DNA of 64,000 bases. Origin: Eubacteriales bacterium. GTDB taxonomy: Bacteria > Bacillota > Clostridia > Oscillospirales > CAG-272. The stretch lies in the NCBI GenBank assembly GCA_045602325.1, contig JAZSBH010000039.1, positions 18,918 through 82,917 of the forward strand, in the 5' to 3' direction. Shown here piece by piece: positions 31,098-37,582 of the stretch (the stretch's first letter is position 1; each line of letters starts with the position of its first letter). A program made the translations under genes and the position numbers. Under the pieces are notes generated by a model. It did no database searches. It saw nothing but the letters and a program-made list of their open reading frames with translations, and was not told where the DNA came from.

Positions 31098-31125
31098 TTG
31101 ACATGGGGGGGTGATGTGATATAAT
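31098..31125 (+). promoter_or_regulatory. sigma-A type promoter
   Basis: TTGACA (31098-31103), 16 nt, TGaTATAAT ending at 31125. Confidence 0.6.
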
Positions 31126-31159
31126 ATGTATAACAATCTTTTTGAGGAGGTGTTTCTGT

Positions 31160-31708
31160 ATGGCAAAAGAAAAGAATCTGTGGCTTGCGTGCTTAAAGCA
31201 CATCATAATTGCGTCCTTGGCGACTTTTGGGGTCTATATGGCCTCGGCTTACCTGGTCGCCGCTATATTTGAGGGCGAGGACAAGCGAACACTTCGTGAC
31301 CTTGTGGCTTATGCCTTTATGATGGTCTTTTATGCCGTCTTTTTCTACCGCTTCCGTGAGTACAACCGCATCAGCACCTATATGGAGCATACGGAACGGT
31401 TCGACCTGAAGGGGGAACTGATGGCGTTTCTGCGCGCCGATGGAAAGATCGTACTGGCCATTTATGGCATCGCCGCTATCGCCACGGAGATATCCTTCTT
31501 TATATTCCCCAGCCCAACTCCCAACCCCGTTGCTACGGTGTGTTTGTTCGCTTTGGGGCCATTTAGCGCCTTGATCCCCGTTCCCGTCCTCCGCTCGGCT
31601 CTGTGCTTCGTCTATGCCGCGGCTGTGGCCTGTGTCCTGGCCATGCTCCGAAGCCGCAAGATCCATCAGAATGACCTGGCGGCCAATGCGCGACGGAGAG
31701 AGCATTGA
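31160..31708 (+). CDS. hypothetical polytopic membrane protein
   Basis: 182 aa from the ATG at 31160 (GAGGAGG SD at 31144-31150). About five hydrophobic segments. Confidence 0.65.
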   Translation: MAKEKNLWLACLKHIIIASLATFGVYMASAYLVAAIFEGEDKRTLRDLVAYAFMMVFYAVFFYRFREYNRISTYMEHTERFDLKGELMAFLRADGKIVLAIYGIAAIATEISFFIFPSPTPNPVATVCLFALGPFSALIPVPVLRSALCFVYAAAVACVLAMLRSRKIHQNDLAANARRREH

Positions 31709-31780: not shown

Positions 31781-34639
31781 TCAATTATCTTTCTTTTTGC
31801 GCTTTGCGGTCAGCACCGCGCTGCCCGCCAGGGCGAGGGGCAGAATCAAGGAGGGAAGCATCGATCCGCACCCCTTGGAATCCTCACTGTCGGTTTCGGT
31901 TTCGGTGTCGGTCGTAACGTTAGGTGCCTTGGTAGTCGGCTCGATTACGGAACCCGTTTCTACGTTGGTGGGAATCTCGGTTTCACCCTCGGCGGGAGGT
32001 ACGCTGCCGGGCATGACGGTGTTGAACACGTAGTTCAGTCTGCCCAGAGGCGCCACGTCGCCCTCGGTGTAGAACTGCTCCATGGTGGTGATCTTGGACT
32101 CGCTATCCACCCACTTGAAGTAGAAGTTCATGTAGTCGCAATGGCTGACTCCCAGCATTTCCAGCGGCACCGCGATCATGAGCTGATTTCCCTTGGCGCG
32201 GTAGCTCACCTCGCCGACGATCTCAAAGGAGTAAGCACCGTCCTTGCCGTTGTACTTAGCCACCGTGGTGGTGAATTCGTCCTTTGCCTGATAGTTGACA
32301 ATGAAGTCGTAGCCGTACCAGCCTGTTGCAGCATTCTGATCGGCATCGATAAGGAGCTGCATCCAGGAGGAATTGGGATCGAACATGGAAACGTCGTGAC
32401 GGGTCTGTGCATAGAAATAGATATTCTTGGTATCATGGGTGATCTTGGAAGCCAGAATGTCGTTGCGTCCCGTGGTATCGGTGTAGCGCTGGTTGCCGTA
32501 GCCGTCAAAATCACGATCCAGACAATCGTTTTTCGGGTCGGTATAGGTCAGGGTCACGCTGTCCCACTGGGTGAAATCACCCGTAACGTTGATGGGATTG
32601 CGGGCATCCTGCAGAATGATGGGAGCCATACCCTTGAGCTTCTGGATGTTGTAGGCGAGCTGGATGTAGTAGTTATCGAAGTAACCGCCCTTCATCATCT
32701 CAATATCGCGGGAGAACTCCACCGAGGCCAGATCCACGAAGTGCGCGTACTCGTTGGAGGTGGACTGAAGCTGTGCGATCCATTCGTTCCAGCCCGTGAC
32801 CAGCACGAAGGGAACGTCAGCCTTGTGGGCTACGTCCCATTGAGCCTGGAAGTTGAGGCCCTGCTTATACAGTTCGGGATCAGCGGCGATGGCATTATAG
32901 TATTCCTCGGTGAGCTTGTCGGTGAGCTTGTCGGTGAGCTTGGCAGAACCGTAGGAGCGCCCCAGGTTGGTACGGTCCATCTTATCGTAGATGGAATCGC
33001 TGAAGCGCCATGTGCCGCGGTGCTGAGCAACCGAGACATTGATGGCAGATTGTTTACCTTTATCGTCGCGGTAGATGTATTGGGGCCGCTTCCCGTCCAT
33101 CCAGGGCCAGGCATTGATGTGATTTTCTGGCTCGGTGGGCCATTGATTGATCTTCATGGTGAAGAAATTATCGATGTTCGCGTCTGCGGGACCCACGATG
33201 ACCGGCTTACCGTCAATGCAGAACCAGGTGTCGGAGTAGTGGCCGGGCTTGTAGATCTCGTTATAGAGGTTACGGATCATGTTCGAGGCGTTGGTATTGG
33301 TGTAGAACACCACACCGGGGGCATCGTAGCCCTGCTGATTCAACTCGTGGAGGATCTTCATGATCTTGAGCGCGGTATCCGAATGGGTGTGGTTATTGGT
33401 GGTGTCAAAGAACAGGAAATCAATGCCGATGTTGGAGAGAAGCTCCATGTGCTTGCGGAGCACCCACTCGTCATTGATATAATAGTAGCCGTACAAAGGC
33501 TCGCCGAACCAATGGAACTCTCCTACCTGACCGTATTTACCCGTGGAGAGCTTACCCTTGTCGGCATCGGGGGTGGAGTCCAGAATATCCTGGAGATTGT
33601 AGATCTCGTCCGTGGGTGCGTGCTTGCCGTGCCAGAGGAAGTAGAAGAGCCCCACGTTCCGCTCGCCGTTGTCCCCGATGACACCCACCTGGGTTGCATC
33701 GTACAGGGAGCGTCCCAGATCGTCGGTGCCTGCAAAGCCGCCGAAGCAGTTGATAGCATGGTTGGGGACCGTGTAAGACCGGGTCTCGCCGTTTACCTCA
33801 TAGGAGATCGTTACGGTCTTGCCGTCGTCGGACTCGGTGAAGGTCAGAGAGCCTGCGCGGGTGTCCTCGGGGGTCGTATCCATATCCTTGTATGCGGGAT
33901 CGGTCCACTCAACGGTGGCGCCGGTCTCCTCCTCCTCGTCGGTACTGCCGCCGGCGTTCTCCTTCTCCCAGGCCAGGAGCTTTTGGTACTCGTCGTAGTT
34001 GAAGCCCTCGGCGCCGTCCTCGGTGTCGAAAAAGGCGATACAGCGGATGTCGATGGCGTCCCCGGGCTGGATCTTGGGGTTCAGGGGATCGAAGCGAAAG
34101 GCGGTGAAGGCCACTGCATCGTCCACGTCCTTCCAGGCCTCGCAGACCACGGTGATCTTGGCGAACTCCTTGGTGGGCTTCCAGCGCCAGATCTGGACGC
34201 CGCCCTTCTGGCCCATCTGCACCCCGTCGGAGCGGTTGCAGTACAGCTCGCCATCCTTGTCCATGTCGGTGCGGTAGATGATGGCCACCGACTTGCACTC
34301 CGAGGGCTTCATGTCGGGGACGTAGAGATTGCACATGGGATCGTCGGCGGTGGCGGTGAAGGTCGTATGGGAGCCCTCTGTGACGACGGCTGTGGTGTTG
34401 CCGATTCCCTCAAAGCTGAAGTAGGCGGTCAGATCCATGTAGTGGATCGGGATCGTGGAATTGATCTCCGGCTTCTTCGCAGAGAGGAGATCGAAGGAAT
34501 AGGCATCGTTGTTCATGATATTTTCGGAATAGTCCTTTTCGGTATTGTTTGAGGCAGAGCATCCCATCAAAGCCGCCGCGCCTCCAAGAAGGGAGGCGCA
34601 GAGGATGGATGCCACAGCCCGTTTGACGCTGTGTTTCAT
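31781..34639 (-). CDS. large surface protein, paralog A: lipoprotein signal, N-terminal domain, glycoside-hydrolase-like core, C-terminal TM anchor
   Basis: 952 aa. Lipobox LMGC. Core conserved with paralog B (VGLFYFLW, EPLYGYYY, IDFLFFDTTN, TGWNEW, TGRNDI). Acidic Thr-rich linker, then GCGS + 20 hydrophobic residues + KRKKKDN. The CDS itself is firm; the enzymatic call is weak. Confidence 0.6.
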   Translation of the reverse strand: MKHSVKRAVASILCASLLGGAAALMGCSASNNTEKDYSENIMNNDAYSFDLLSAKKPEINSTIPIHYMDLTAYFSFEGIGNTTAVVTEGSHTTFTATADDPMCNLYVPDMKPSECKSVAIIYRTDMDKDGELYCNRSDGVQMGQKGGVQIWRWKPTKEFAKITVVCEAWKDVDDAVAFTAFRFDPLNPKIQPGDAIDIRCIAFFDTEDGAEGFNYDEYQKLLAWEKENAGGSTDEEEETGATVEWTDPAYKDMDTTPEDTRAGSLTFTESDDGKTVTISYEVNGETRSYTVPNHAINCFGGFAGTDDLGRSLYDATQVGVIGDNGERNVGLFYFLWHGKHAPTDEIYNLQDILDSTPDADKGKLSTGKYGQVGEFHWFGEPLYGYYYINDEWVLRKHMELLSNIGIDFLFFDTTNNHTHSDTALKIMKILHELNQQGYDAPGVVFYTNTNASNMIRNLYNEIYKPGHYSDTWFCIDGKPVIVGPADANIDNFFTMKINQWPTEPENHINAWPWMDGKRPQYIYRDDKGKQSAINVSVAQHRGTWRFSDSIYDKMDRTNLGRSYGSAKLTDKLTDKLTEEYYNAIAADPELYKQGLNFQAQWDVAHKADVPFVLVTGWNEWIAQLQSTSNEYAHFVDLASVEFSRDIEMMKGGYFDNYYIQLAYNIQKLKGMAPIILQDARNPINVTGDFTQWDSVTLTYTDPKNDCLDRDFDGYGNQRYTDTTGRNDILASKITHDTKNIYFYAQTRHDVSMFDPNSSWMQLLIDADQNAATGWYGYDFIVNYQAKDEFTTTVAKYNGKDGAYSFEIVGEVSYRAKGNQLMIAVPLEMLGVSHCDYMNFYFKWVDSESKITTMEQFYTEGDVAPLGRLNYVFNTVMPGSVPPAEGETEIPTNVETGSVIEPTTKAPNVTTDTETETDSEDSKGCGSMLPSLILPLALAGSAVLTAKRKKKDN
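32907..32942. repeat. perfect 12-bp x3 in-frame tandem repeat inside paralog A
   Basis: TCGGTGAGCTTG repeated three times. Encodes KLTD-KLTD-KLTE on the minus strand. Confidence 0.9.
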
Positions 34640-34663
34640 GGTAGAGTCCTTTCGTCGCTCGGA

Positions 34664-37582
34664 TTACTGTTCCTTACGCTTGATGAACACGACGGAGGAG
34701 AGGAGTGCCATCAGCGCGATGAAGCCCGCGGAAATAACGGTGGATTTGCATCCGCCGGAGGCAGGCTCGGTCTCGGAGACGCCGGGGGTCTCGACGGCGG
34801 GGGCGTCCGTGGGTGTCTCGGTGTCGGGAGTCTGGGTCTCGGGCTCGGTCACGGGTTGAGTCTCGGGAGCCGTAGTCTCATCCTCGGGGTAGGAGATGTT
34901 GGATACACCGGGGATGTAGTTTTGGAAGACGTAATTCATTCTTCCCAAAGGTGCCACGTCGCCGTCGCAGTAGAAGTCCTCCATCTCGTCGTAGGTGGTT
35001 TCGCTGTCGGCCCACTTGAACTGGAAGCAGAGCTCTTTGTAGCCCTCGATGCCCAACAGCTCCTGGGGAACCTCGATCATCATCTTGTTCTCCTTGACGC
35101 GGTAGGCGACCTCACCCACGGTGGTAAAGCCGTACTGACCGTCGGTGCCGTTGTATTTAGCTACGGTGGTGACGGTACCGCTCTTGACCTCGTAGTTTAC
35201 GACATAGTCGTAGCCGTACCAGCCTGTACTGCCGTTGCTGTCGGCGTCGATGTACAGCTTCATCCAGGAGGAATCGTTGTCATACAAAGGAATTTTGTCG
35301 GCGGTCTCAACGTAGAAGTAAATGTTCTTGGAATCAGCGGTCACCTTGGTAGCAACGATGTCGTTACGGCCGGAGGTGTTGGTATAGGGGGTTCTGCCGA
35401 AGCCAATGGCGTCGCGGTCAGCGGTATCGCCCTTGGCGTCGTAGTAGGTGAAAGCGACGGCATCCCATTGGTCAAACTCACCCGTGACGTTGATGGGATT
35501 GCGGGCATCCTGTACCACAATGGGGGCTGCCCCCTTGACGCGCTGGACGTTGTAAGCAAGCTGGATGTAGTAGTTATCGAAGTAACCGCCCCGCATCATC
35601 TCGGAGTCGCGGGAGAACTCCATGGAGGAGGTGTCCACGAAGAAGATACTGCCGTCATTGGTGGGCTGACGCTGGGCGACCCACTCGTTCCAGCCGGTGA
35701 CCAGGATGTACATAGCACCCGAGTCAATGGCGCGGTCGAACTGTGCCTGGAAGTTGAGACCCTGGTTGGTGAGGGTTGGATCGGCCTTCCACTCGTCGTA
35801 GCGCTGCTGGAGAATCTTTTCGTTGGAGCGCTTCTCTGCCCAGAAAGAGCGGCCGCGGTTGGAGGGATCGTTGTACAGGGAGGAGCTGGAGAAGCGGACG
35901 GAACCGCTGTGCTGGGCGATGGAGACGCTGATGGCGGCGCCGTCAAAGTCGTAAGCCGAGCGGAACAGGCGGGACGGCCACTGGAAGTCCATCCAAGGCC
36001 AGCCGTTGACCTTGGACTGCTCGGTGGGCCACTGGTTCTGCTTCATGGTGAAGAAATCGTTGATGTTGGCCTCGTTGGGACCGATGATGACCGGCTTACC
36101 GTTGATCTTGAACCAGGTGTCCTCGTACAGACCCTTGCTGTAGATGTCGTTGTAGACCTGGCGGATAACGTTCTCGGCGGAGGAGTTGGTGTAGAAGACC
36201 ACCTGAGGTGCGTCAAAGCCCTGCTCGTTGAGCTCGTGGAGGCACTCCATGAGCTTCTTGGCGTTGTGGAGGTAGGGGTAGCCGTTGGTGGTATCGAAAT
36301 ACAGGAAGTCGATGTTGGCCTGGGTCAGAAGCTCGGCGTGCTTGCGATGTACCCACTGGTCGTTGGCGTAGTAGTAGCCGTAGAGGGGCTCGGCAAACCA
36401 GTGCATGGCGCCCACGGGGCCGTACTTGCCGCATTTGGTGTTGCCTGCAGCCTCAACACCCACCTCATCGATGATCTTCTGCAAGTCGAAGATACCGCTG
36501 TCGCCGTGCTCACCCTGCCACAGGAAGTAGAACAGACCGACGTACTTCTCACCGGTGGAGCCGTAGGCGCCTACGTCGGTAGAGGTGTACATGGTGCGGT
36601 CGAGGTCGTCGGTGGCGGCGTAACCGCCCATGGTGTAGTTGTAGTTGTTGGGCACGGTGTAAGAGACGGTCTCGCCGTTTACGTGATAGGAAATGGTGAC
36701 ACTCTTACCGTCCTCGGAGACCTCGTACTTGAGGGAACCGCCGTCGGTGTCCTCGGGGGTGGTCTCCTTTTCCGTGTATGTCGGTGTCTCCCAAGCGTAG
36801 TTTTTCTTGGCCTCCTCTTCTTGGCGCTTCAGTTCCTCTTCATAAGCCAGCTTGGCGATATACTGCTCCATATCGAAACCGTTGTAGAGCTCCTCGGTCT
36901 CAAAGAAGGCGATGAAGCGGATGTCGATGGAAGCGCCTGCGGGGATGGGGTACTTGACCCAGCCGGTAGAATCCTTGTAGGGCTCGCCGTTCTCGTTGAG
37001 CACGTAGCCGGCCTCCAGGGGATCGAAGCGGAAGAAGGTAGATTTCGTGCCGTTGTAGGCACCGCTGTCGATGATGGGCTGGGTGTCGAAGCCGTGGGCG
37101 TGCCACTCGCCGTCTGCAACCACAGCGGTCTCCAGCATAGCTGTGTCGTCCTTGGGGTCATTGCCGGTGGAGCCCATGTAGCACTGAATGGTGGTGTTCT
37201 CGGCATTGGAGGAGCGGTAGGCGATGACCACGTACTTGACAGGCATATCCAAGGTGGACATGGGGCGGAAGTAGGGGTCGGCGGCAGAGGGGGTAATGGT
37301 GACGTAACCGTCCTTCAGCTCGACCGAGCCCAGTCTGTCATTGGCACCCGTAGCCTTAGACAGCTCCTCGGCGGTGAGGATGTGGGAGGGCTCGGTGGTA
37401 TTAAAGGTAGGTGCCTCGTCTGCCAGGAGATCGAAGGTGTGCCGATCGCCCGTGCTGGCTGCTGCCTCGGAGGAGAGGACTGTAGCGAGCATCGTAGCGG
37501 TCAGTGTGGCGACAGAGCCGAGCATGAGCACGGCCAGAAGAACCGACATGATCGTCAGAAGAGTTTTCTTTTTTGCGTTCAT
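34664..37582 (-). CDS. large surface protein, paralog B: signal/anchor peptide, same core as paralog A, C-terminal TM anchor
   Basis: 972 aa. Roughly 55-60 percent identical to paralog A across the core by eye, with identical DNA runs of over 20 nt (for example GCTGGATGTAGTAGTTATCGAAGTAACCGCC and ACGTTGATGGGATTGCGGGCATCCTG in both). Pro/Thr/Glu linker, then GGCKS + hydrophobic stretch + KRKEQ. Confidence 0.6.
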   Translation of the reverse strand: MNAKKKTLLTIMSVLLAVLMLGSVATLTATMLATVLSSEAAASTGDRHTFDLLADEAPTFNTTEPSHILTAEELSKATGANDRLGSVELKDGYVTITPSAADPYFRPMSTLDMPVKYVVIAYRSSNAENTTIQCYMGSTGNDPKDDTAMLETAVVADGEWHAHGFDTQPIIDSGAYNGTKSTFFRFDPLEAGYVLNENGEPYKDSTGWVKYPIPAGASIDIRFIAFFETEELYNGFDMEQYIAKLAYEEELKRQEEEAKKNYAWETPTYTEKETTPEDTDGGSLKYEVSEDGKSVTISYHVNGETVSYTVPNNYNYTMGGYAATDDLDRTMYTSTDVGAYGSTGEKYVGLFYFLWQGEHGDSGIFDLQKIIDEVGVEAAGNTKCGKYGPVGAMHWFAEPLYGYYYANDQWVHRKHAELLTQANIDFLYFDTTNGYPYLHNAKKLMECLHELNEQGFDAPQVVFYTNSSAENVIRQVYNDIYSKGLYEDTWFKINGKPVIIGPNEANINDFFTMKQNQWPTEQSKVNGWPWMDFQWPSRLFRSAYDFDGAAISVSIAQHSGSVRFSSSSLYNDPSNRGRSFWAEKRSNEKILQQRYDEWKADPTLTNQGLNFQAQFDRAIDSGAMYILVTGWNEWVAQRQPTNDGSIFFVDTSSMEFSRDSEMMRGGYFDNYYIQLAYNVQRVKGAAPIVVQDARNPINVTGEFDQWDAVAFTYYDAKGDTADRDAIGFGRTPYTNTSGRNDIVATKVTADSKNIYFYVETADKIPLYDNDSSWMKLYIDADSNGSTGWYGYDYVVNYEVKSGTVTTVAKYNGTDGQYGFTTVGEVAYRVKENKMMIEVPQELLGIEGYKELCFQFKWADSETTYDEMEDFYCDGDVAPLGRMNYVFQNYIPGVSNISYPEDETTAPETQPVTEPETQTPDTETPTDAPAVETPGVSETEPASGGCKSTVISAGFIALMALLSSVVFIKRKEQ

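Follow-up and report, generated by a model that had tools for sequence, protein, structure and literature searches.

In Myxococcota, the MYXO-CTERM signal places an invariant cysteine beside a glycine, followed by a transmembrane (TM) helix and a basic tail, at the C-terminus of secreted proteins that number dozens in each genome and are unrelated to one another, and the signal is processed by the myxosortase MrtX, a CPBP/Rce1-type glutamic intramembrane protease (Haft 2023 bioRxiv 10.1101/2023.06.07.544157; PMC11980579). The order proposed is lipidation, then cleavage: an unidentified 'Lgt-like' enzyme is thought to act ahead of the CPBP protease, the acyltransferase that would serve MrtX 'remains unidentified', and the enzyme that modifies the invariant cysteine of Cys-type C-terminal signals is explicitly described as unknown (PMC11980579). 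It was not until 2023-2025 that signals of this kind, handled by CPBP 'myxosortases', came to be recognised. Synergistota have a comparable pair in the Synerg-CTERM signal (TIGR04564), which is also built on a cysteine, and the small CPBP protease MrtS (NF040589); we know of no Lgt paralog coupled to MrtS. In the CAAX processing of eukaryotes and archaea, the signal is a four-residue cytosolic C-terminus that carries an isoprenoid: a prenyltransferase lipidates the cysteine and Rce1 or MmRce1 cuts distal to it. Classical lipoproteins are modified by a PF01790 transferase, Lgt, at the cysteine of an N-terminal lipobox, placed where a helix meets the outer face of the membrane; this helix is cleaved by the aspartyl signal peptidase II, LspA. 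Sortase substrates end in a linker, an LPXTG motif, a helix and a basic tail.

The window, by which we mean the whole stretch of 64,000 nucleotides analysed here, contains tandem minus-strand genes for two proteins, paralogs A and B, that share 47% identity (Table 1). Positions 31781-31885 of the minus strand translate as EDSKGCGSMLPSLILPLALAGSAVLTAKRKKKDN and a stop codon, forming the C-terminus of A, and positions 34664-34765 of the same strand as PASGGCKSTVISAGFIALMALLSSVVFIKRKEQ and a stop codon, forming that of B. The first-pass annotation had described a Gly-Cys pair, a hydrophobic helix and a basic tail at both C-termini, and translation reproduces this description exactly; the Pro/Thr/Glu-rich linkers that it placed ahead of both tails are there, and no LPXTG-type motif precedes the helix, as it had also stated. 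The N-terminus of A is a lipobox (LMGC), conserved in 7/7 close orthologues, and that of B is a signal-peptidase-I type signal. The remark that A would be doubly tethered gains support from its orthologues, which retain the lipobox and the G-C tail alike. Our reading is that the G-C tail is a portable, dedicated C-terminal sorting signal that belongs to a single family of Clostridia, uncultured inhabitants of gut and rumen (labelled Oscillospiraceae / Eubacteriales by NCBI), lipidated at its cysteine by a divergent Lgt paralog, Lgt2, and then cut by a CPBP protease subfamily, type X. We assign this reading a probability of roughly three in four; there is no biochemical evidence for either lipidation or cleavage.

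Table 1 Positions of the two paralogous genes and their parts in the window.
Feature	Positions	Strand	Basis or remark
Paralog A gene	31781..34639	(-)	952 aa ORF; secreted multi-domain protein with linker and G-C tail at its end
N-terminal lipoprotein signal of A, MKHSVKRAVASILCASLLGGAAALMG-C	34559..34639	(-)	lipobox Cys27 codon at 34559-34561
Pro/Thr/Glu-rich disordered linker of A, residues ~884-922	31874..31990	(-)	pLDDT <50 from residue 884 on
Invariant Gly-Cys of tail A, G923-C924	31868..31873	(-)	translation and conservation in tails
Hydrophobic helix of tail A, MLPSLILPLALAGSAVLTA	31805..31861	(-)	translation
Basic cytoplasmic tail of A, KRKKKDN and stop codon	31781..31804	(-)	translation
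Paralog B gene	34664..37582	(-)	972 aa ORF; domain layout, linker and G-C tail as in A
Invariant Gly-Cys of tail B	34748..34753	(-)	translation
Hydrophobic helix of tail B, TVISAGFIALMALLSSVVFI	34682..34741	(-)	translation
Basic tail of B, KRKEQ and stop codon	34664..34681	(-)	translation

The sequence of paralog A gave no match in Pfam, NCBIfam or the PDB. Its AF2 model (mean pLDDT 65.6), analysed with Foldseek, consists of a CBM-like β-sandwich, a (β/α)-barrel core and a C-terminal β-sandwich; the matches to the model were CBM6/CBM11-like, and those of the barrel core to GH71-like folds were only weak. AF2 did not fold the tail as a helix, and pLDDT was low in that region.

When the ORFs of the genome were scanned with a broad pattern, 33 secreted proteins belonging to 18 unrelated homology groups were found to end in a G-C tail. 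Glycine and cysteine are invariant among them and are followed by [GKAS]-S, ~20 hydrophobic residues and [KR]KK[DE]; the consensus of the tail is [KEP]-[GKS]-G-C-[GK]-S-[AV]-[VIL], ~20 hydrophobic residues and [KR]KK[DE]. Among genome ORFs of at least 200 aa that end with a hydrophobic run and a basic tail, 26 of 46 have G-C at the boundary, a pattern far beyond chance given the ~2% expected from dipeptide frequency. The 40 residues upstream of G-C in the 33 members are rich in threonine (19%), glutamate (15%) and proline (13%), and a Sec signal peptide is present in 30/30 members with a complete N-terminus. Typical surface cargo precedes the tails (amidase_3, CHAP, GH2, discoidin, GDPD, NAGPA, CBM9, NPCBM and Big domains), and its kinds, including amidases, glycosidases and Ig-like repeats, are those that sortases anchor.

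Homologues of A and B from 33 metagenome-assembled genome (MAG) loci keep G-C in 27/27 tail-bearing cases despite ~50% identity in the body of the protein. The tail behaves as a module, since neither it nor the linker is present in six distant homologues. In 90 tails from other genomes, the glycine is present in 96% and the cysteine in 100%. The first-pass annotation had likened the tail to a Cys-containing, MYXO-CTERM-like sorting tag, a likeness that would have failed, leaving a plain anchor, had the motif been confined to the two paralogs without a partner enzyme or its Gly-Cys not been conserved in homologues; the spread over 18 homology groups and the conservation of G-C both favour the sorting tag.

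Comparison with curated models places the tail near known signals without assigning it to any of them, as none of the Pfam or NCBIfam C-terminal models reaches its cut-off through the G-C motif. The closest by sequence is Synerg-CTERM, with 9/33 tails matching TIGR04564 below threshold from G-C onwards (best 19.0 versus 22.5 bits). The MYXO-CTERM models (TIGR03901 / TIGR03382) do not reach cut-off and match only 2-3/33 tails at all (E 0.38-1.7), and the tripartite MYXO-CTERM layout, in which many secreted proteins of unrelated kinds end in an invariant cysteine, TM helix and basic tail, is present; the basic tail here is Lys-rich rather than Arg-rich. Matches to the LPXTG models (TIGR01167 / PF00746) cover only model positions 10-33, that is, the helix and basic tail, and the invariant residue is a cysteine rather than part of an LPXTG-like motif. 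In the 88%-complete assembly no sortase (PF04203), rhomboid (PF01694) or exosortase (PF09721) was found, which sets the tail apart from sortase anchoring and leaves the GlyGly-CTERM/rhombosortase and PEP-CTERM/exosortase systems without a rhomboid- or EpsH-family enzyme. In tails A and B the cysteine is 27-28 residues away from the C-terminus, not fourth from the end as in a CAAX box.

In a 150-genome sample of the order, tail HMM matches were confined to the window's own GTDB family, and within the family 27/150 genomes were positive. The CPBP subfamily type X (alignment A2) is present in 30/150 family genomes, and G-C tails occur in 29/30 genomes with type X versus 1/120 without it; 26 of these 29 were recognised by the tail HMM and three by G-C-tail genes adjoining the protease. 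One genome has tails without the Lgt2-type X pair, and in another the pair is present with no tail seen. This co-occurrence is confined to one family, may reflect few evolutionary events, and was assessed without a tree-based test. Type X meets the criteria for CPBP/Rce1-like proteins, scoring 59-74 bits against PF02517 (cut-off 22.4), with the catalytic motifs EExxxR, FxxxH and HxxxN/D intact in 81/81 sequences. It falls below the curated Mrt cut-offs (Mrt_core, NF040914, 30.5 versus 100; MrtJ, 29.8 versus 75; MrtS, 25.7 versus 130), and a sequence search of solved structures gave no match. The system differs from Synerg-CTERM/MrtS in phylum and in that both tail and protease lie under the model cut-offs. 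A type X-like match in another family (102 bits) was weak, has no Lgt2 beside it and is not the same system.

The gene for Lgt2 lies immediately upstream of the type X gene on the same strand in 99/101 loci (21/21 and 78/80), and taking the nearest protease ATG as the start gives an overlap with the end of lgt2 in most loci, most commonly of 8 nt. A G-C-tail gene is found within 5 kb of the pair in 13/16 and ~28/80 loci. A partner enzyme co-occurring with the tail had been anticipated, and one is indeed found; it is none of the sortase, rhombosortase or archaeosortase candidates that had been named, and is instead a protease of the CPBP type whose gene is coupled to that of an Lgt paralog. Lgt2 satisfies the family-level criteria for Lgt, with a PF01790 match of ~100 bits (101; Pfam cut-off 24.9) versus ~240 for the housekeeping enzyme and with the essential arginine pair R143/R239 retained (E. 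coli numbering throughout); Y26, G104, R143, G154, Y235, R239, E243 and R246 are kept in 77-79/79 sequences, and G154 is among the residues that count as invariant, with the arginine pair, Y26, Y235 and E243. A canonical Lgt is additionally present in each pair-positive genome.

Two residues of the Lgt signature motif are changed invariably in Lgt2 (N146C and E151C), whereas the housekeeping copy retains N and E; the divergent paralogs carry the motif GRLGC...GCCYG. Both replaced residues are reportedly important in E. coli Lgt, and because they are replaced the chemistry of Lgt2 could differ. With this goes an alternative in which CPBP processes a real signal while Lgt2 uses another lipid or head-group donor or another acceptor, the steps run in reverse, or the housekeeping Lgt performs the lipidation. 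Besides the two substitutions, it can draw on scores below every Lgt equivalog cut-off (TIGR00544; NF000778; 115 versus 334 and 67 versus 118.9) and on the processing of an MrtX substrate by MrtX in E. coli in the absence of any dedicated transferase (PMC11980579). We nevertheless consider it unlikely: R143/R239, Y26, Y235 and E243 are invariant, and the tight translational coupling to the protease together with the adjacency of substrate genes argues that Lgt2 and the protease share one substrate.

Neither lgt2 nor type X was found in the 88%-complete assembly of the genome to which the window belongs. Exactly one lgt2-cpbpX cassette is carried by each of its 5/5 closest relatives, together with 27-53 tails each. 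Contig C37 lacks the cassette at the position where synteny would place it; synteny with a closer relative (G294) reaches the gene adjoining the cassette and then ends, synteny with a same-genus genome (G220) breaks ~10 kb from the cassette, and the genes bordering the cassette in G294, that for FtsK among them, are likewise missing from the assembly. No cassette fragments were found at contig ends by low-stringency tblastx/blastn. As the assembly has neither gene and the C37 spot lacks the cassette, the presence of Lgt2 and type X in this organism is inferred from its relatives. The genome's own CPBP genes (C126, C141, C140 and C132) were assessed as possible partners: just 16 of the 30 family genomes with C141-like orthologues are tail-positive, and five carriers checked at E 0.5 had no tails, while C126-like orthologues occur in 42 genomes, 12 of them tail-positive. 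Neither type tracks the tail, and both were rejected. The convergent 188-aa membrane ORF beside A (31142-31708) has no CPBP motifs and no family match above threshold.

The lack of a partner enzyme in this assembly is also what an unprocessed C-terminal transmembrane anchor would predict, with G-C serving merely as a helix cap or packing preference. A helix and basic tail would suffice to anchor a protein, and these parts resemble the generic TM/basic portion of LPXTG anchors. Such an anchor would not be expected to hold a cysteine invariant at a fixed position across ~120 tails on unrelated proteins, nor to co-occur with and adjoin a lipid transferase-protease pair that all five closest relatives possess, and we regard it as very unlikely. 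The idea that lgt2-cpbpX is a variant system for maturing N-terminal lipoproteins and is only incidentally associated with the tail can appeal to paralog A, itself a lipoprotein, and to CPBP proteins that take part in N-terminal lipoprotein modification, such as LnsB in S. aureus lipoprotein N-acylation (PMC7387801), but it is very unlikely when a clear lipobox occurs in 1/33 tail proteins (paralog A), the pair follows the tail at 29/30 versus 1/120, and the genes adjoining the pair bear G-C tails with signal-peptidase-I type signals.

Under the lipidation-and-cleavage reading, the precursor would leave the cytoplasm by the Sec route, directed by its N-terminal signal peptide, and would stay in the membrane through its C-terminal helix, oriented so that the basic tail is inside and the cysteine at the outer leaflet boundary. 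Lgt2 would then transfer a lipid, inferred to be of diacylglyceryl type, onto the thiol of the invariant cysteine, and type X, its translationally coupled Rce1-like glutamic intramembrane protease, would cut distal to the cysteine and remove the helix and basic tail. The lipidation itself is inferred, as are this order of steps and the site of cleavage. The predicted product is a surface enzyme on the outside of the monoderm membrane, tethered by a C-terminal lipid through a long Pro/Thr/Glu stalk; paralog A, with its lipobox, may carry lipid anchors at both ends. The logic is that of CAAX processing, in which one enzyme lipidates a cysteine thiol and a separate CPBP-family protease cuts distal to it, except that here the cysteine is extracytoplasmic and followed by ~28 residues including a TM helix, and the candidate transferase belongs to the Lgt (diacylglyceryl) family. 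The glycine before the cysteine and the small residues after it recall classical lipoproteins, with C-G-S and C-K-S resembling mature lipoprotein N-termini; the tail does not contain a lipobox, because there is no L at -3, and the arrangement is a mirror image, the helix following the cysteine and a CPBP protease taking the place of signal peptidase II. Unlike MYXO-CTERM, the G-C system belongs to Clostridia that are monoderm, so that neither an outer membrane nor a T2SS step is involved, and, as the main difference, it has a dedicated Lgt paralog in an operon with the protease.

Our searches found nothing relevant in the literature on a Firmicutes system that pairs Lgt with CPBP or lipidates C-termini, and no paper describing the G-C tail system. 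The tail and the gene pair suggest a candidate for the enzyme, not yet identified, that lipidates signals of this kind: the signal is now seen in gut bacteria of the Gram-positive type, where a divergent Lgt paralog is translationally coupled to the protease and lies beside substrate genes, which turns the lipidation question into a three-gene cassette directly testable in a heterologous host. If correct, this would add a new means by which monoderm bacteria anchor their surface enzymes, a C-terminal lipid in place of sortase or the cell wall. It would concern 27-53 proteins per genome in Clostridia that are abundant in rumen and hind-gut, and many of these proteins are carbohydrate-active. 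We offer more tentatively, as an idea that could well prove wrong, that dozens of surface enzymes of monoderm gut Clostridia are 'reverse lipoproteins', S-diacylglycerylated at a C-terminal cysteine by their dedicated Lgt paralog and freed of the helix by the coupled Rce1-type protease, and by extension that Lgt-family enzymes perform the lipidation step for all Cys-type signals (MYXO-CTERM, Synerg-CTERM, JDVT-CTERM and CGP-CTERM). The G-C-tail proteins at present carry no sorting annotation, and a few of them risk being misannotated as LPXTG proteins because TIGR01167 reaches its cut-off on two tails, by way of the helix and basic part alone.

The neighbouring surface-protein genes paralog A and paralog B encode products that are 47% identical, and translation of the window placed their C-terminal tails (Gly-Cys, a helix and a basic end; hereafter the G-C tail) where the first-pass annotation had located them. 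The N-terminal signal is of the lipoprotein type in paralog A (…AALMG-C) and of the signal-peptidase-I type in paralog B; neither protein matched any Pfam or NCBIfam family or any PDB sequence. Only a short gap separates the two genes, a promoter-like site lies 5' of paralog B, and the pair is probably co-transcribed. The membrane ORF convergent with paralog A gave no family above threshold (DUF4131, E 0.0018, was below cut-off), and motifs of CPBP (Rce1-type) proteases were not found in it.

Coordinates of the genes, tails and sites discussed (window positions unless a contig is named; G000, assembly containing the window; G236 and G294, other genomes)
Feature	Position	Strand	Remarks
Paralog A	31781-34639	minus	952 aa, tandem with paralog B
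Paralog A, 3' end	31781-31885	minus	EDSKGCGSMLPSLILPLALAGSAVLTAKRKKKDN, then stop
Paralog B	34664-37582	minus	972 aa, tandem with paralog A
Paralog B, 3' end	34664-34765	minus	PASGGCKSTVISAGFIALMALLSSVVFIKRKEQ, then stop
Intergenic, paralog B stop to paralog A start	34640-34663		24 nt
Promoter-like site 5' of paralog B	37658-37630	minus	
Membrane ORF	31142-31708	plus	188 aa, multi-pass, convergent with paralog A
Promoter-like site of membrane ORF	31098-31125	plus	perfect TTGACA-16-TATAAT, TG extension
Tandem array	G000 C157:10519-16445		four G-C-tail genes (~400-630 aa)
Tandem array	G000 C164:33156-40276		four G-C-tail genes (~400-630 aa)
MerR-like gene	G000 C132:95602-96417 (L004 2250-3065)	minus	271 aa, N-terminal HTH, C-terminal membrane and zinc-ribbon-like part
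Weak CPBP gene	G000 C132:94817-95620		directly downstream of MerR-like gene
Divergent Lgt-family ORF	G236:C70:3673-4311		
Divergent Lgt-family ORF	G236:C74:38392-39051		
Divergent Lgt-family ORF	G294:C46:13259-13846		

Restriction of the motif to these two proteins, with no partner enzyme, would have refuted a sorting tag. A six-frame scan of the G000 assembly (2.38 Mb, 173 contigs, 88% complete; the window lies on contig C39) instead recovered 33 ORFs with the G-C tail, which formed 18 BLAST clusters after signal and tail were stripped. Their tails consist of G-C, 2-4 small residues, a hydrophobic stretch of ~20 residues and a [KR]KK[DE] end, with G and C the only invariant columns; an HMM built from them added one copy, at a contig edge. 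Among 46 long ORFs with a terminal hydrophobic run and basic tail, 26 carry G-C at the boundary, against ~2% by chance. Sec signal peptides were found in all 30 tail proteins with a complete N-terminus, and Thr, Glu and Pro are abundant in the 40 residues N-terminal to G-C across the 33. The domains identified (amidase_3, CHAP, GH2, F5/8-type-C, GDPD, NAGPA, CBM9, NPCBM, Big_2/3 and Listeria-Bacteroides repeats) are typical surface cargo.

Nor did homologues bear out the other outcome that would have counted against the tag, a non-conserved Gly-Cys. In paralog A/B homologues drawn from 33 MAG loci of Clostridia from ruminant and other herbivore guts, G-C-[GKAS]-[SA], helix and KKK were kept in all 27 that bear a tail, even at ~50% body identity; six distant homologues stop directly past the last folded domain, without linker or tail. 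In 90 further tails from other genomes, retrieved with a pattern that left the Gly free, position -1 was G in 96%, +1 was G, K, A or S, and +2 was S in 83%.

No C-terminal sorting model matched the G000 tails at cut-off through the motif. The nearest, Synerg-CTERM, reached 19.0 at best against a cut-off of 22.5, and matches to LPXTG, NPXTG and GVDTG models covered only the helix and basic part. By that part alone two tails (contigs C81 and C119) passed TIGR01167 LPXTG_anchor (16.7 and 17.1 vs 15.9), and these proteins may be labelled LPXTG in automatic annotation, although they lack the motif and no sortase was found. The partner enzyme anticipated in the first-pass annotation was not of the kinds it named. 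No sortase, rhomboid or exosortase gene was found in the 88% complete assembly; what co-occurs with the tail in the family is a CPBP/Lgt pair. G000 itself has one canonical Lgt and four CPBP genes. Two of these (C141 and C126) were rejected as partners on the distribution of their orthologues, which does not follow the tail. The weak CPBP on C132 and the MerR-like gene directly upstream may form a regulator-protease pair.

Tail HMM matches in a 150-genome sample of the order were confined to the window's own GTDB family, in which 27 of 150 genomes were positive; with G000 counted, the tail occurs in 18 of 97 genera. When all CPBPs of five tail-positive genomes were listed, the proteins adjoining tail genes formed a separate subfamily of ~265-295 aa (type X), whose profile (alignment A2) matched 30 of the 150 family genomes. 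The tail HMM was positive in 26 of these 30; three others (G185, G239 and G227) have G-C-tail genes directly beside type X, and in G186 no tail was seen. Without type X, tails occurred in 1 of 120 family genomes, G169 (97% complete, 8% contamination), which has three genuine G-C-tail genes on C33 and C37 (loci L192 and L193) and in which a search at E 1e-20 gave no type X CPBP; the explanation is either a missed cassette or mis-binning of the contigs. A 400-genome sample of the phylum yielded no type X, its single weak match being unrelated. All 81 type X sequences retain EExxxR, FxxxH and HxxxN/D, and the subfamily scores under every myxosortase cut-off.

The gene order in G294 is G-C-tail protein, a 305-aa PF01790 protein (Lgt2), type X. 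This divergent Lgt paralog directly precedes type X, in the same orientation, at 21 of 21 loci in the family sample and closest relatives, and at 78 of 80 loci gathered from separate species across the genome collection; in most loci the nearest type X ATG overlaps the end of lgt2, most commonly by 8 nt, and about 28 of the 80 have a G-C-tail gene no more than 5 kb away. Lgt2 (~100 bits) scores under every Lgt equivalog cut-off, and a canonical Lgt (~240 bits) is also present in all five positive genomes checked. Of 79 Lgt2 sequences, 77-79 retain Y26, G104, R143, G154, Y235, R239, E243 and R246 (E. coli numbering, by alignment to 5AZB), and N146C and E151C are invariant; the G000 housekeeping Lgt retains N and E. 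Some genomes carry, besides these two, still more divergent Lgt-family ORFs of 226-242 aa that score 63-72 bits.

By analogy with CAAX processing and the MYXO-CTERM model, and in view of the genetic coupling of Lgt2 to protease and substrates, we propose that the precursor would be exported by Sec, S-lipidated at the tail Cys by Lgt2 and cleaved distal to the Cys by type X, yielding a surface protein lipid-anchored at its C-terminus; none of these steps has been shown biochemically. Relative to the membrane boundary this Cys would be placed like that of a lipobox, with the helix on its opposite side. For MYXO-CTERM, Cys lipidation by an unidentified "Lgt-like" enzyme is thought to precede MrtX cleavage (PMC11980579; Haft preprint), and the housekeeping Lgt is the authors' leading candidate for the unidentified cognate acyltransferase (PMC11980579); the G-C-tail system, in contrast, has a dedicated, remodelled Lgt paralog. 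Full-text literature searches returned no paper describing an Lgt-CPBP G-C-tail system.

Neither lgt2 nor type X was found in the G000 assembly. The five closest relatives, whose paralog A orthologues are 76-79% identical, each carry a single cassette together with 27-53 tails. The G294 cassette is flanked by ftsK on one side and a lipoprotein gene on the other. The lipoprotein gene is on G000 contig C37, where synteny ends exactly, and the whole assembly lacks orthologues of the 1082-aa FtsK, the adjoining substrate gene and other cassette neighbours. The most economical inference is that the G000 cassette lies in an unassembled segment.

For paralog A, AF2 predicts from a 22-sequence alignment (mean pLDDT 65.6) an N-terminal beta-sandwich followed by a small beta domain, then a (beta/alpha)-barrel region and, ahead of the disordered linker with the tail, a C-terminal beta-sandwich. 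Foldseek returned CBM6/CBM11-like matches for a sandwich and weak GH71-like matches for the core; on these predictions both paralogs are probably carbohydrate-active surface enzymes, a low-confidence assignment. The suggestion that paralog A is doubly tethered gained support from its seven close orthologues, all of which keep both lipobox and G-C tail; in this lineage both ends of the protein would carry a lipid tether, with lipidation not shown biochemically. Elsewhere in G000, scanned members of the two tandem arrays on C157 and C164 had no Pfam match, and the arrays look like lineage-specific expanded surface-protein families.
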